Sequence record: PP216085
Reading direction: 5' to 3' (one strand)
From: Escherichia phage vB_EcoM_HZ_ZJUN4
Length of the DNA: 64,000 bases
The position numbers and the translations under genes are program-made. Positions 4,567-58,898 of the stretch are shown one piece after another. A model generated the notes under the pieces. It did not search any database. It worked only from the letters and a program-made list of their open reading frames with translations, and was not told where the DNA came from. Numbering within the stretch: the stretch's first letter is position 1; every line of letters begins with the position of its first letter.

Positions 4567-4767
4567 ATGAATCCTGAATCTAAATTATCGCAACGAATTG
4601 CTGAAGCTCGTCGTCAGTTCTTTGAAAATATGATAGCCCAAGGTATTGATGACGAAGTTTTTCTGAACTGGTTTTGGAATCACAAATATTCAAAATGCGC
4701 AGGAGCAATATTAATATCAGCCGCAATGATGTACGAAGGCTGGAAGGGTGCCAAACAGTTTAGCTAA
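4567..4767 (+). CDS. hypothetical protein
   Basis: 66-aa ORF abutting previous stop, followed by terminator hairpin. Confidence 0.45.
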   Translation: MNPESKLSQRIAEARRQFFENMIAQGIDDEVFLNWFWNHKYSKCAGAILISAAMMYEGWKGAKQFS

Positions 4768-4785
4768 GGGCTTCGGCCCTTTTTG
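4767..4785 (+). terminator. intrinsic terminator hairpin agggcttcggccct + TTTT
   Basis: GC stem with UUCG tetraloop and T run. Confidence 0.6.
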
Positions 4786-6959: not shown

Positions 6960-7152
6960 AAGATGAACACCCAGACTTCTGAAATAGATTATAACAAAAT
7001 TCGTTCCTCTAAAGTAGAAATGATGAGACGCTTTAAAGAGGCTCATGATAAAGCTAAAGCAGAAGGAACTATAACATATAAACGCATAAAATTTAGAAGC
7101 TCTAATGAGCCTCTGTATGGTGTATTATGTGGATAGGAGCTTCGGCTCCTAT

Positions 7153-7202: not shown

Positions 7203-8405
7203 ATGAAAGTATGTATTTTTATGGCTCGAGGTCTTGAAGGTTGCGGTGTAACTAAATTTTCTCTTGAGCAGCGTGATTGGTTTATTAAAAATGGTCATGA
7301 AGTAACTTTGGTTTATGCTAAAGATAAATCATTTACTCGTAATTGCGCGCATGATTATAAATCATTTTCAATTCCGGTTTTATTGGCAAAAGAATACGAT
7401 AAAACACTTAAGTTGGTAAATGATTGTGATATTCTAATTATCAATTCAGTTCCTGCTACTTCAGTTGAAGAAGACACGATTAATAACTATAAAAAAATTA
7501 TTGATAACATTAAACCTTCGGTTCGTGTTGTAGTTTATCAGCATGACCATTCTTCTCTTTCTTTACGCCGAAATTTGGGATTAGAAGAAACTGTTCGTCG
7601 AGCTGATGTTATTTTTAGCCATTCTGATAATGGCGATTTTAATAAAGTTTTAATGAAAGAATGGTATCCAGAAACTGTTTCACTGTTTGATGATATTGAA
7701 GAAGCACCGACTGTATATAACTTTCAGCCTCCTATGGATATTGCGAAGGTTCGATCAACTTACTGGAAAGATGTTTCTGAAATTAACATGAATATCAACC
7801 GTTGGATTGGTCGTACTACTACATGGAAAGGCTTTTATCAGATGTTTGATTTTCACGAAAAACATCTTAAACCTGCAGGACTAAGTACTATTATGGAAGG
7901 TCTGGAACGTTCTCCAGCGTTCATTCCTATTAAAGAAAAAGGAATTCCATACGAGTATTATCGTCTTCATCAAGTAGACCAAATTAAAATTGCTCCTAAT
8001 TTGCCAACGCAAATTCTCGACCGTTATGTAAATAGCGAAATGCTTGAACGTATGAGTAAATCCGGATTTGGTTATCAGCTGAGTAAATTAGATAAAAAAT
8101 ATCTACAACGTTCTTTAGAATACACTCATCTCGAGCTTGGTGCATGCGGAACAATTCCAGTATTTTGGAAATCTACTGGTGAAAATTTAAAATTCCGTGT
8201 TGATAATACTCCGTTAATTTCTCATGATAGCGGTATCGTTTGGTTTGATGAAAATGACATGAAATCAACATTTGAGCGTATTAAAGAACTGTCATCTGAC
8301 CGAGCTCTTTATGACCGTGAACGTGAAAAAGCTTATGAATTTTTGTATCAGCATCAAGATTCAAGCTTCTGCTTTAAAGAGCAGTTTGACATTATTACAA
8401 AATAA
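7203..8405 (+). CDS. a-gt: DNA alpha-glucosyltransferase
   Basis: 400-aa ORF MKVCIFMARGLEGCGVTKF... recognised as T4 alpha-gt; position upstream of 47. Confidence 0.88.
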   Translation: MKVCIFMARGLEGCGVTKFSLEQRDWFIKNGHEVTLVYAKDKSFTRNCAHDYKSFSIPVLLAKEYDKTLKLVNDCDILIINSVPATSVEEDTINNYKKIIDNIKPSVRVVVYQHDHSSLSLRRNLGLEETVRRADVIFSHSDNGDFNKVLMKEWYPETVSLFDDIEEAPTVYNFQPPMDIAKVRSTYWKDVSEINMNINRWIGRTTTWKGFYQMFDFHEKHLKPAGLSTIMEGLERSPAFIPIKEKGIPYEYYRLHQVDQIKIAPNLPTQILDRYVNSEMLERMSKSGFGYQLSKLDKKYLQRSLEYTHLELGACGTIPVFWKSTGENLKFRVDNTPLISHDSGIVWFDENDMKSTFERIKELSSDRALYDREREKAYEFLYQHQDSSFCFKEQFDIITK

Positions 8406-8420
8406 AGGGCTTCGGCCCTT
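8405..8420 (+). terminator. hairpin aagggcttcggccctt
   Basis: GC stem with UUCG loop directly after a-gt stop. Confidence 0.55.
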
Positions 8421-8446
8421 TAGCTTTATACGGAGTTTGATATAAT
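8421..8446 (+). promoter_or_regulatory. candidate middle promoter (tAGCTTTA box 8421-8428, TATAAT 8441-8446)
   Basis: Same hairpin-box-TATAAT architecture recurs at 39301-39341. Confidence 0.4.
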
Positions 8447-12425: not shown

Positions 12426-13112
12426 ATGAAACTGTCTAAAGATACTACTGCTCTGCTTAAAAATTTCGCTACTATTAACTCTGGTATTATGCTTAAATCC
12501 GGTCAATTTATTATGACTCGCGCGGTTAATGGTACTACTTATGCGGAAGCAAATATTTCTGACACTATTGATTTTGATGTAGCAATTTACGATTTGAACG
12601 GTTTTCTCGGTATTCTGTCTCTAGTTAATGACGATGCAGAAATTTCCCAGTCAGAAGATGGTAATATTAAAATTGCTGATGCCCGTTCAACAATTTTTTG
12701 GCCAGCAGCCGATCCGAGTACAGTAGTTGCTCCTAATAAACCAATTCCATTCCCGGTAGCATCTGTTGTTACTGAAATTAAAGCTGAAGACCTTCAACAG
12801 CTGTTGCGTGTATCTCGTGGTCTGCAGATTGATACAATTGCTATCACAGTAAAAGAAGGTAAAATCGTAATTAATGGTTTTAATAAAGTGGAAGATTCTG
12901 CTTTGACTCGTGTTAAATATTCTTTGACTCTTGGTGATTATGATGGTGAAAATACATTTAATTTCATTATCAATATGGCAAATATGAAAATGCAACCAGG
13001 AAATTATAAACTTCTGCTCTGGGCAAAAGGTAAACAAGGTGCTGCTAAATTTGAAGGTGAACACGCGAATTATGTAGTAGCTCTTGAAGCTGATTCTACC
13101 CACGATTTTTAA
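12426..13112 (+). CDS. 45: sliding clamp gp45
   Basis: 228 aa, MKLSKDTTALLKNFATINSGIMLKSGQ... recognised as T4 gp45. Confidence 0.93.
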   Translation: MKLSKDTTALLKNFATINSGIMLKSGQFIMTRAVNGTTYAEANISDTIDFDVAIYDLNGFLGILSLVNDDAEISQSEDGNIKIADARSTIFWPAADPSTVVAPNKPIPFPVASVVTEIKAEDLQQLLRVSRGLQIDTIAITVKEGKIVINGFNKVEDSALTRVKYSLTLGDYDGENTFNFIINMANMKMQPGNYKLLLWAKGKQGAAKFEGEHANYVVALEADSTHDF

Positions 13113-13115
13113 TAG

Positions 13116-13132
13116 AGGGCTTCGGCCCTTTA
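13116..13132 (+). terminator. hairpin agggcttcggccct + T-rich
   Basis: GC stem and UUCG loop after gene 45 stop. Confidence 0.5.
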
Positions 13133-13163
13133 TAATTTACATTAAAACTTGAATGAGGAAATT

Positions 13164-15060: not shown

Positions 15061-15078
15061 AAGGGGCTTCGGCCCCTT
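15061..15078 (+). terminator. hairpin aaggggcttcggcccctt
   Basis: Strong GC stem with UUCG loop after regA. Confidence 0.55.
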
Positions 15079-22278: not shown

Positions 22279-22615
22279 AGATGATTTAGATTTAGATCTA
22301 GAAATTATCGACGAATCCCCCTCTTCGGAGGGGGAAGAAGAAAGAAAAGAACGTCTTTTTAATGAATCTCTTAAGATAATTAAATCTGCCATGGAAAATG
22401 TTATCCAGGAGATTGTCATTAAACTAGAAGATGGTTCTACACACATTGTGTATGTGACAAAATTAGATTGGGTTGATGGAAAAGTCGTAATGGACTTTGC
22501 TGTTCTTGACCAAGAAAGAAAAGCTGAGTTAGCTCCTCATGTAGAAAAATGTATTACAATGCAACTACAAGATGCATTTAATAAAAGGTCAAAGAAAAAA
22601 TTTAAATTCTTTTAA
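22271..22615 (+). CDS. 40: head vertex assembly chaperone gp40
   Basis: 114 aa from ATG 22271 overlapping uvsX stop; position between uvsX and 41. Confidence 0.65.
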   Translation: MNKDDLDLDLEIIDESPSSEGEEERKERLFNESLKIIKSAMENVIQEIVIKLEDGSTHIVYVTKLDWVDGKVVMDFAVLDQERKAELAPHVEKCITMQLQDAFNKRSKKKFKFF

Positions 22616-29921: not shown

Positions 29922-29930
29922 ATAATTTAA

Positions 29931-29954
29931 GGAATCCTTCGGGGTTCCTTTTTT
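29931..29954 (+). terminator. hairpin ggaatccttcggggttcc + TTTTTT
   Basis: GC stem, UUCG loop, T run after soc. Confidence 0.6.
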
Positions 29955-39034: not shown

Positions 39035-39299
39035 AATTATGAAATATGTTAATCGTTCTATCGCAGCATTAGTATTAGCAGTATCTTTAGTAGGATGTAC
39101 TGATGCTGATAATGCAACCAAAGTTTTGTCTTCAAGCGGTTTTACTAATATTGAAATCACTGGATATAATTGGTTCGGTTGCTCTGAAAATGATTTCCAA
39201 CACACTGGATTTCGTGCTATTGGACCTACCGGGCAGAAAGTAGAAGGAACAGTATGTTCTGGTCTATTCTTCAAGGATTCGACTATCCGTTTTAAATAA
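39027..39299 (+). CDS. predicted lipoprotein (signal peptide, LVGC lipobox)
   Basis: MKYVNRSIAALVLAVSLVGCTD... Confidence 0.5.
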   Translation: MSEIMKYVNRSIAALVLAVSLVGCTDADNATKVLSSSGFTNIEITGYNWFGCSENDFQHTGFRAIGPTGQKVEGTVCSGLFFKDSTIRFK

Positions 39300-39300
39300 A

Positions 39301-39314
39301 AGGCCTTCGGGCCT
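39301..39314 (+). terminator. hairpin aggccttcgggcct
   Basis: GC stem and UUCG loop after lipoprotein gene. Confidence 0.5.
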
Positions 39315-39315
39315 T

Positions 39316-39341
39316 TAGCTTTATGATTACCGGAGTATAAT
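39316..39341 (+). promoter_or_regulatory. candidate MotA-dependent middle promoter (tAGCTTTA 39316-39323, TATAAT 39336-39341, 12-nt spacing)
   Basis: Same module as 8421-8446. Confidence 0.45.
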
Positions 39342-41715: not shown

Positions 41716-41833
41716 TTCTTCTAGCGTTGATATGAAAAAATATAAATTGCAGAACAATGTTCGTCGTTCTATTAAATCCTCTTCAATGAACTATGCGAAT
41801 GTCGCTATTATGACAGACGCAGATCACGATGGA
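41696..41833 (+). CDS. 60: topoisomerase II subunit gp60, codons 1-46 (pre-bypass)
   Basis: MKFVKIDSSSVDMKKYKLQNNVRRSIKSSSMNYANVAIMTDADHDG ends at take-off GGA followed by TAG. Confidence 0.9.
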
Positions 41834-41883
41834 TAGCCTTCGGGCTATCTATAGAAATACCTCATAATTAAGAGATTATTGGA
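41834..41883 (+). promoter_or_regulatory. 60: gene 60 translational bypass coding gap (50 nt): UAG stop plus take-off stem-loop tagccttcgggctatct, ending at landing GGA 41881-41883
   Basis: Sequence GAT GGA TAG CCTTCGGGCTATCTATAGAAATACCTCATAATTAAGAGATTATT GGA TTA GGT matches the T4 gene 60 hop element as I recall it. Confidence 0.9.
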
Positions 41884-45624: not shown

Positions 45625-45639
45625 GGGCTTCGGCCCCTT
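45623..45639 (+). other. RNA hairpin aagggcttcggcccctt overlapping rIIB stop (no T run)
   Basis: GC stem with UUCG loop; may be a stability element rather than terminator. Confidence 0.4.
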
Positions 45640-45850: not shown

Positions 45851-45870
45851 AAGGGGCTTCGGCCCTTTTG
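45851..45870 (+). terminator. hairpin aaggggcttcggccctt + TTGTTTT
   Basis: GC stem, UUCG loop, T-rich tail. Confidence 0.6.
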
Positions 45871-46992: not shown

Positions 46993-47261
46993 ATAAAATG
47001 AAATTTAAATTTTATTACGCTAAACATAAAATAACTGATGAGTTTGTGTCAGTTGAATATTCTAGCGATGATGAAGGTATGATTTATACTCGCTTGGGAC
47101 TATCGCACTGGGAGTCTGATACGCCTTATTTTTCAACTCCCGAAGAAATTACACGCTTAGTTAATGGTCATATGAATGACCACTGGAATGTAATTCTTTC
47201 AGATAGTCTTAAAGCGGCTATTAATAGTAATGAAATGAAAATCGCTGAGATTGAACTATGA
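46989..47261 (+). CDS. hypothetical protein
   Basis: 90-aa ORF, ATGA overlap. Confidence 0.5.
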   Translation: MNKMKFKFYYAKHKITDEFVSVEYSSDDEGMIYTRLGLSHWESDTPYFSTPEEITRLVNGHMNDHWNVILSDSLKAAINSNEMKIAEIEL

Positions 47262-48214: not shown

Positions 48215-48670
48215 ATGAAATACATGACTGTTACTGATCTGAATAATGCAGGCGCAACTGTTATTGGTACAATTAAGGGCGGTGAATGGGTTTTTGGAAC
48301 TCCGCATAAAGACATTTTGTCTAACCCTGGATTTTACTTTTTAGTAAGCAAATTTGGTGGTCCATTTGATAGTCCATGTGTATCTGCACGATTTTATGTA
48401 GGTAATCAGCGTTCTAAACAAGGATTTAGCGCAGTTCTAAGTCATATTCGCCAGCGTCGGTCTCAGCTTGCGCGTACTATTGCAAATAACAATGTTCCAT
48501 ACACGGTATTTTATCTACCTGCTTCTAAGATGAAACCTCTGACGACGGGATTTGGAAAAGGTCAGTTAGCTTTAGCGTTTACTCGTAATCATCATTCTGA
48601 GTATCAAACACTTGAAGAAATGAACCGTATGTTGGCTGATAACTTTAAATTTGTTTTGCAGGCATATTAA
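48215..48670 (+). CDS. ndd: nucleoid disruption protein Ndd
   Basis: 151 aa from ATG 48215 ([25 protein letters not shown]...) recognised as T4 Ndd. Confidence 0.85.
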
Positions 48671-48750
48671 TGAGTAATTTCCATAACGAACATGTAATGC
48701 AGTTCTATCGTAACAATCTTAAAACTAAAGGCGTCTTCGGACGCCAGTGA
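48670..48750 (+). CDS. stp: Stp peptide (26 aa), activator of host PrrC anticodon nuclease / EcoprrI inhibitor
   Basis: [26 protein letters not shown]; ATG overlaps ndd stop; contains hairpin ggcgtcttcggacgcc. Confidence 0.75.
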
Positions 48751-48757
48751 GGAAAAT

Positions 48758-48913
48758 ATGAATATTGCAAAACTATTAGGAGTTATTTCATTTATTTGTT
48801 GGATAGTAGCATGTGTTTTAACTATCTGTATCGATGCTAGCAGTGTGTTTTCGCAAGCTTTAGCTCAGGGTATGTGTGCATATTTAACATTTGCGTTGTT
48901 ATCTAATGATTAA
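48758..48913 (+). CDS. ac: small membrane protein (51 aa), probable ac (acridine sensitivity) gene
   Basis: 51-aa hydrophobic ORF after GAGG, position between stp and 52. Confidence 0.5.
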   Translation: MNIAKLLGVISFICWIVACVLTICIDASSVFSQALAQGMCAYLTFALLSND

Positions 48914-49046
48914 GAAAATCTTGGGCTACTCGGTAGCCCTTGCTGCTTTATTGGTAGCACTATATTATGGAGTAATGTTCGGATTAATTCAAGTCGTGCT
49001 TTTCATTTCTGATGTTATTATGGCACTACATTCACTAGTATGGTAA
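48906..49046 (+). CDS. hypothetical small membrane protein (46 aa)
   Basis: Hydrophobic ORF overlapping previous stop. Confidence 0.35.
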   Translation: MIKKILGYSVALAALLVALYYGVMFGLIQVVLFISDVIMALHSLVW

Positions 49047-54844: not shown

Positions 54845-54856
54845 ATAAACCTCCAA

Positions 54857-54870
54857 GGGGCCGAAGCCCC
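54857..54870 (-). other. RNA hairpin GGGGCUUCGGCCCC between gene 37 stop and gene 38 SD
   Basis: Perfect 5-bp GC stem with UUCG loop on minus strand. Confidence 0.5.
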
Positions 54871-54875
54871 TCTTA

Positions 54876-58890: not shown

Positions 58891-58898
58891 TATTTATA
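58891..58898 (-). promoter_or_regulatory. T4 late promoter TATAAATA (minus strand) upstream of gene 36
   Basis: Plus-strand tatttata 24 nt upstream of gene 36 start. Confidence 0.6.

Follow-up and report, generated by a model that had tools for sequence, protein, structure and literature searches.

The Stp peptide of phage T4 inhibits the type Ic restriction enzyme EcoprrI and thereby unmasks PrrC, a tRNA-Lys anticodon nuclease that is latent while associated with EcoprrI (PMC3014915, PMC1484252, PMC12409349). Stp relieves restriction by EcoprrI and by a second type Ic enzyme, EcoR124I, whereas restriction by EcoKI and EcoBI, both of type Ia, is not relieved; activation of PrrC also requires GTP hydrolysis, with dTTP as co-activator, and the cut tRNA is mended by T4 polynucleotide kinase and RNA ligase 1 (PMC3014915, PMC1484252, PMC12409349). 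Both activities rest on the N-proximal 18 residues of the peptide, with suppressor mutations at residues 4-14, and the loss of the eight C-terminal codons causes only a moderate drop in activity (PMC3014915). A common logic, in which an inhibitor of restriction is sensed and a toxic effector is released, is found for T7 Ocr with PARIS, and for Ronin, although the proteins and the effectors are unrelated to those of the Stp response (PMC12409349, bioRxiv 10.1101/2023.04.06.535777). With its 26 residues, Stp is a peptide directed specifically at type Ic enzymes and is not a DNA mimic (PMC3014915). A further known property of T4 that bears on the locus described here is the presence in its mRNA of C(UUCG)G tetraloops, the 'extraordinarily stable' hairpins first described there in 1988 (PMC4371310).

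The window analysed, a stretch of 64,000 nucleotides from Escherichia phage vB_EcoM_HZ_ZJUN4 (PP216085), extends from nrdD/nrdG to the long-tail-fibre gene 34, and its best 1-kb match among public records is phage EP01 (99.0% identical). The T4 gene order ndd-stp-ac-52.1-52 is present on the early strand (Table 1), with gene 52 labelled as a topoisomerase in all close records, while pnk (pseT) and rnl1 presumably lie beyond the end of the window, going by the T4 map. The TAA of ndd occupies 48668-48670 and the ATG of stp 48670-48672, such that one base, the A at 48670, is common to both genes (TAATG), as the first-pass annotation had claimed in placing the start of stp over the stop of ndd. 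At its other end the TGA of stp (48748-48750) is overlapped by a GAGG, the putative Shine-Dalgarno of ac, which lies 3 nt beyond the hairpin discussed below, with 5 nt separating it from the ATG of ac. Elsewhere in the window, positions 1-2500 harbour a putative homing endonuclease gene at the nrdD-nrdG junction. Coverage of this stretch reaches at least 80% in 20 of the 880 matching phage records, a low value indicating that it is a variable, probably mobile, insert.

Table 1. Coordinates of stp, its neighbours and the CUUCGG-capped stem-loops in the 64,000-nucleotide window
Feature	Position	Strand	Basis or remark
ndd, nucleoid disruption protein, 151 aa	48215..48670	+	PF06591 296 bits, phrog_1102; T4 ndd length and position
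stp, predicted anti-restriction peptide and PrrC activator	48670..48750	+	26 codons plus TGA, ATG start
stp codons 1-18, N-proximal region with both Stp activities	48670..48723	+	literature (PMC3014915)
C(UUCG)G tetraloop hairpin GGCGUC-UUCG-GACGCC	48730..48745	+	MFE/centroid folds, -11.5 kcal/mol alone
GAGG, putative Shine-Dalgarno of ac	48749..48752	+	read from sequence
ac, acridine resistance, 51 aa, predicted membrane protein	48758..48913	+	T4 ac position and length; phrog_2501
gene 52.1, 46 aa, predicted membrane protein	48906..49046	+	PF24129 DUF7396 79.8 bits, 1-46/46; T4 52.1
gene 52, DNA topoisomerase II medium subunit, 442 aa	49051..50379	+	T4 gene 52 length and position
CUUCGG-capped stem-loops	4766-4781, 7133-7152, 8403-8422, 13112-13133, 15061-15078	+	
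CUUCGG-capped stem-loops	22316-22335, 29929-29950, 39299-39316, 45625-45636, 45851-45868	+	
CUUCGG-capped stem-loops	54855-54872, 47134-47151	-	

The peptide encoded by the 26-codon gene is identical to T4 Stp (NC_000866, T4p267, NP_049878) at all 26 residues, while the DNA is identical at 79 of 81 nucleotides, the two changes (His8 CAC/CAT and Val9 GTG/GTA) both being synonymous. NP_049878 is labelled in the T4 record 'activator of host PrrC lysyl-tRNA endonuclease', with a length of 26 amino acids. The window peptide matches the Pfam 'Anticodon nuclease activator family' (Nuclease_act, PF08133) with 75.3 bits against a curated cut-off of 25 bits, residues 1-26 aligning to positions 1-26 of the 26-position profile, and PHROG 6763 (phrog_6763) with E = 4e-21. 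These data bear out the first-pass annotation, which had recognized the gene as T4 Stp and had proposed alignment to T4 stp as the check. The same 26-residue peptide is present in 422 phage records and relatives of it in 817 (tblastn), and the curated records that name the identical peptide stp are those of T4, RB27, ACG-C40 and RB68. The identity to T4 Stp leaves the N-proximal 18 residues intact, including positions 4-14, and the most distant siphovirus matches still align to residues 1-18/19. Judged from these comparisons, the locus is almost certainly the stp of a T4-like phage of the genus Tequatrovirus, whose product would block type Ic restriction and unmask PrrC. Going by sequence the gene is already known, being the same as that of T4 in another Tequatrovirus isolate; the flanking genes, the TAATG overlap and the hairpin are common to both loci, with no substantive difference between them.

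An open frame of 26 codons is not in itself evidence for a gene, because there are 48 ORFs of 20 aa or longer in the 3.5 kb around stp. The abundance of such short frames, the weak Shine-Dalgarno upstream of stp (AGG, 7 nt before the ATG) and the fact that the ORF is unnamed in most public records would all be compatible with a chance open frame in the ndd-ac intergenic spacer, from which no peptide is made. This explanation has next to no prospect of being correct, however, as the peptide is identical to one that has been characterized both genetically and biochemically, and as the Pfam and PHROG matches cover its full length. Codon comparisons across phage families point the same way. The window gene and the homologue in the siphovirus Kagunavirus K1ind2 differ by 12 synonymous and 3 non-synonymous codons (one of the latter being the stop position), a ratio which indicates that stp is under purifying selection and is a real coding gene; for a second Kagunavirus-type contig the corresponding differences are 9 and 2. 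Homologues are also found in Drexlerviridae and Guernseyvirinae phages, where the genomic contexts are unrelated. For practical purposes the chance-frame reading is refuted by the peptide identity, the profile matches and the synonymous bias.

The presence of the gene is seldom reflected in annotation. In EP01, the closest public record, stp is unannotated; it is named in 1 of the 30 best DNA matches to the locus and in approximately 5 of 36 sampled T4-like entries with a near-identical peptide. The omission of stp from the ORF list that accompanied the first-pass annotation is plausible for the same gene, since the lister has a default threshold of 60 aa, above the 26 residues of Stp, and EP01 leaves it unannotated. 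These gaps fit the general weakness of gene callers on very short genes. In phage G28 (NC_054916) the stp hairpin at 930-945 is labelled a terminator while the stp coding sequence is left unannotated, an example of an RNA-structure call inside an unrecognized coding sequence.

The functional steps proposed for the window gene are carried over from T4 because the peptides are 100% identical. Translation of stp would take place from an early ndd-stp-ac-52.1-52 message, and is probably coupled to ndd termination via the TAATG overlap. The peptide is expected to act as an inhibitor of type Ic restriction and an activator of PrrC: it would bind EcoprrI and EcoR124I, such that DNA restriction is blocked, and in prr hosts would alter the EcoprrI-PrrC complex, unmasking PrrC, which would then cleave the anticodon loop of tRNA-Lys. 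Such damage would normally be repaired by the polynucleotide kinase and RNA ligase 1 of the phage. The mechanism put forward in the first-pass annotation, in which inhibition of EcoprrI by Stp unleashes PrrC, agrees with the literature on T4 Stp (PMC3014915, PMC1484252, PMC12409349).

Degenerate DNA patterns for stp retrieved only 13 viral and 16 metagenomic loci, a small comparative sample, and none in bacterial or archaeal genomes, giving no sign of prophage or cellular copies. Beyond the T-even phages, siphovirus homologues are present in Rtp (rtp6; Drexlerviridae), in Kagunavirus K1ind2 and ZCEC5 and in Salmonella phage STGO-35-1. Like the window peptide these share an N-proximal NxHNEHxMQxYR core, and those of Rtp and Kagunavirus have a KGVFGK tail as well, but the siphovirus genes are without the hairpin, have other neighbours and, in some cases, short N-terminal extensions. 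In the T1-like siphovirus Rtp (NC_007603), rtp6 (683-775) is situated ∼450 nt downstream of the polynucleotide kinase gene rtp4 (1-234), so that here, in a phage that is not T-even, linkage exists between the trigger and a portion of the countermeasure that repairs the tRNA. A 4,022-nt IMG/VR and JGI contig (L009 and L029) contains at 226-450 a Kagunavirus-type stp homologue that is fused in frame to the gene downstream of it, giving a 74-aa ORF; in its relatives the following ATG instead overlaps the stop of stp (AAATGA). The fusion is either natural or the result of an assembly indel. The spacing of ndd and stp also varies. In TH22 (496-708), and similarly in loci L005 and L031, an extra small hydrophobic ORF is located between ndd and stp, showing that the TAATG overlap is not universal among T-even phages. 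What appeared in TH22 to be an in-frame fusion of the upstream ORF to stp is accounted for by this additional gene, which has its stop over stp codons 2-3.

The 3′ end of the window stp folds into the stem-loop that the first-pass annotation had reported there without proposing a role for it (ggcgtc-ttcg-gacgcc). When a 151-nt context is folded, the MFE and centroid structures both include this stem-loop. The stem consists of six perfect Watson-Crick pairs, five of them G-C, and the UUCG loop is closed by a C-G pair. The structure is formed by stp codons 21-25 (GGC GTC TTC GGA CGC) together with the first base of codon 26, and ends 12 nt upstream of the ac ATG. All five codons are minority choices in the phage, with usage fractions of 0.15 for GGC, 0.07 for GTC, 0.24 for TTC, 0.31 for GGA and 0.14 for CGC. 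Given the GVFGRQ peptide and phage codon usage, the probability of CTTCGG is 0.018 and that of a perfect Watson-Crick 6-bp stem is 5e-4. This choice of codons speaks against a chance origin of the hairpin. No match was obtained with Rfam at gathering thresholds or with ARAGORN in the whole window, and the absence of an Rfam match places the hairpin outside the curated RNA families.

The stp hairpin is a member of a class that is over-represented in the window. Stems of 6 bp with a 4-nt loop are in general common, numbering 48 compared with ∼27 expected by simulation, and CTTCGG occurs 30 times where 13.4 are expected. On the + strand, the sense strand of the early genes, 11 stems of 5 bp or longer are capped by CUUCGG, and on the - strand 2, whereas simulation gave on average 0.37 over the two strands; by this measure the hairpin is more than chance. 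When the + strand is considered at a stem length of at least 4 bp there are 12, and 8 of the 11 other than that in stp start between -3 and +7 nt from a + strand ORF stop, 16-70 nt ahead of the next start codon. In common with the T4 mRNA hairpins, that of stp presents CUUCGG with a C-G closing pair and a stable, G+C-rich stem on the sense strand of an early gene, shortly upstream of the following gene's ribosome-binding site. It differs from the class in its location, in that it lies inside codons 21-26, while most of the others occupy non-coding gaps at or just after a stop; the usual intercistronic position is thus replaced here by a coding-embedded one. As the hairpin resides inside coding sequence, the segment is dual-coding and is composed of rare codons. 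Some CUUCGG stems in the window have a T-rich tail, as at 29929-29950, where the tail is TTTTCGTTTT, and resemble genuine terminators, while others do not. The translational bypass ('hop') element of gene 60, a known T4 feature, is intact on the + strand at 41831-41883, with take-off from the GGA of 41831-41833, a TAG immediately after it, and a gap of 50 nt that closes with the landing GGA (41881-41883); its CUUCGG-capped stem spans 41829-41852 (atggatagccTTCGggctatctat).

Whether this structure has been selected depends on how much of it the peptide alone would generate. The hairpin could be a functionless by-product of encoding GVFGR and of shared ancestry, with only the peptide being of consequence. 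A 6-pair stem that counts G.U has a probability of 0.083 (8%) given the peptide and phage codon usage, Stp activity can largely do without the eight C-terminal codons (PMC3014915), and both T2-type alleles and the siphovirus homologues manage without the hairpin, all of which would be expected if the stem were incidental. The by-product explanation is at odds, however, with the rarity of a perfect CUUCGG-capped Watson-Crick stem made of five minority codons, and with the enrichment and strand bias of the motif class described above.

Variation among alleles is informative on both sides. The T4-type Tequatrovirus contigs have the tail GVFGRQ and the hairpin in the window form. In 25-codon alleles, which terminate at GVFGR, the terminal G-C pair becomes G.U. 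The tail GVFGRP is associated with a UUUG loop in Gaprivervirus VR7, with replacement of a U-A pair by U.G in TH22 and with both changes in phage 212, while two metagenomic alleles (L022 and L037) have GVFGRL and keep the stem, the terminal pair being G.U in L022. The stem is therefore kept in all sampled T-even alleles with a GVFGR tail. By contrast, T2, TOPO13 and locus L024 have tails of the KNFGILGFKK type and are without the hairpin, as are Kagunavirus and Rtp, in which a GVFGK tail is encoded by GGR GTG/GTA TTT GGA AAA; two Kagunavirus alleles, when folded, gave only -1.7 to -1.9 kcal/mol. T2, TOPO13 and L024 represent a second T-even allele, in which residues 1-18 are unchanged and the tail reads KNFGILGFKK or KNFGILGSKNS; in L024 the stp frame continues open for 180 nt, passing the following gene's ribosome-binding site and its start.

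Amino-acid changes in the diverged T-even lineages fall at codons 19, 20 and 26, joined in Gaprivervirus by codons 12, 13 and 15, whereas codons 21-25 remain fixed, displaying only stem-compatible changes in Gaprivervirus and the metagenomic T-even alleles; this contrast argues against an incidental stem. No compensatory base-pair change in the stem was found among the sampled alleles, which is in keeping with a by-product, and every synonymous transition in codons 21-25 preserves pairing through G.U wobble, so that the variants observed cannot separate selection on the stem from drift. Similarly, the conservation of GVFG in siphovirus homologues that are without the hairpin shows that GVFG is constrained as peptide irrespective of any RNA structure and that part of the conservation is owed to the peptide. 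The main support for selection on the stem comes, therefore, from codon usage and from membership of an enriched, strand-biased class, rather than from the comparative data. Taken together, these observations leave the by-product explanation a realistic possibility, but one that we regard as less likely than not. From the distribution among alleles the stem is an added feature specific to T-even phages and not needed for Stp function. That the hairpin is a selected dual-coding RNA element, the dispensable tail of Stp having been recoded with rare codons by T-even phages, is advanced as a tentative proposal whose chances we place just short of even.

The hairpin formed by the last stp codons is of the C(UUCG)G kind that T-even phages put after many early genes. 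Literature searches found no published function for the stp hairpin. Its most likely role, judged by analogy with the related hairpins and given about an even chance, is at the level of the mRNA, either as a stable 3′ structure, which would shield the upstream ndd-stp RNA from 3′ exonucleases, or as a mark for processing or pausing immediately upstream of where ribosomes bind for ac.

A stable stem followed by a T-rich sequence would also be the hallmark of an intrinsic terminator, active either on the sense strand or, in the antisense direction, as a barrier to late transcription that reads through. The G28 record labels exactly this stem 'putative transcriptional terminator, -10.30', and for the - strand, where TTTAGTTTTA comes after the stem, a consensus scan lists it as terminator-like. 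The sense-strand tail, however, is AGTGAGGAAA, with a single T in the first 8 bases, and ac, 52.1 and 52, which follow within 12 nt, need read-through. The lack of a U-tract rules out an intrinsic terminator on the sense strand, and the T-rich tail occurs in the antisense orientation only. In that orientation the loop is CGAA and not the extra-stable UUCG, and the nearest exact - strand matches to the late promoter (TATAAATA), at 58891 and 63958, are at least 10 kb away, too distant to favour an antisense terminator. The scan of the region, moreover, returns 6 terminator-like sites where 2.3 ± 1.7 are expected. A terminator on either strand is thus unlikely, and the probability of the antisense role in particular is low.

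From a biological viewpoint an identical copy of stp in another T4-like phage is nothing new. Automated annotation, however, omits the gene from most public T4-like genomes, and Stp is a textbook example of an anti-restriction factor turned against the phage by a host guard system; its recognition therefore matters both for annotation and for the prediction of host range on prr+ strains. The rare-codon UUCG hairpin is a modest, inexpensive system in which to test the superposition of RNA structure on coding sequence. If the dual-coding proposal is correct, peptide and RNA functions would be superimposed within 16 nt, and the C(UUCG)G stem would control the fate of the ndd-stp-ac message, through protection of the 3′ end, processing or the tuning of ac translation.
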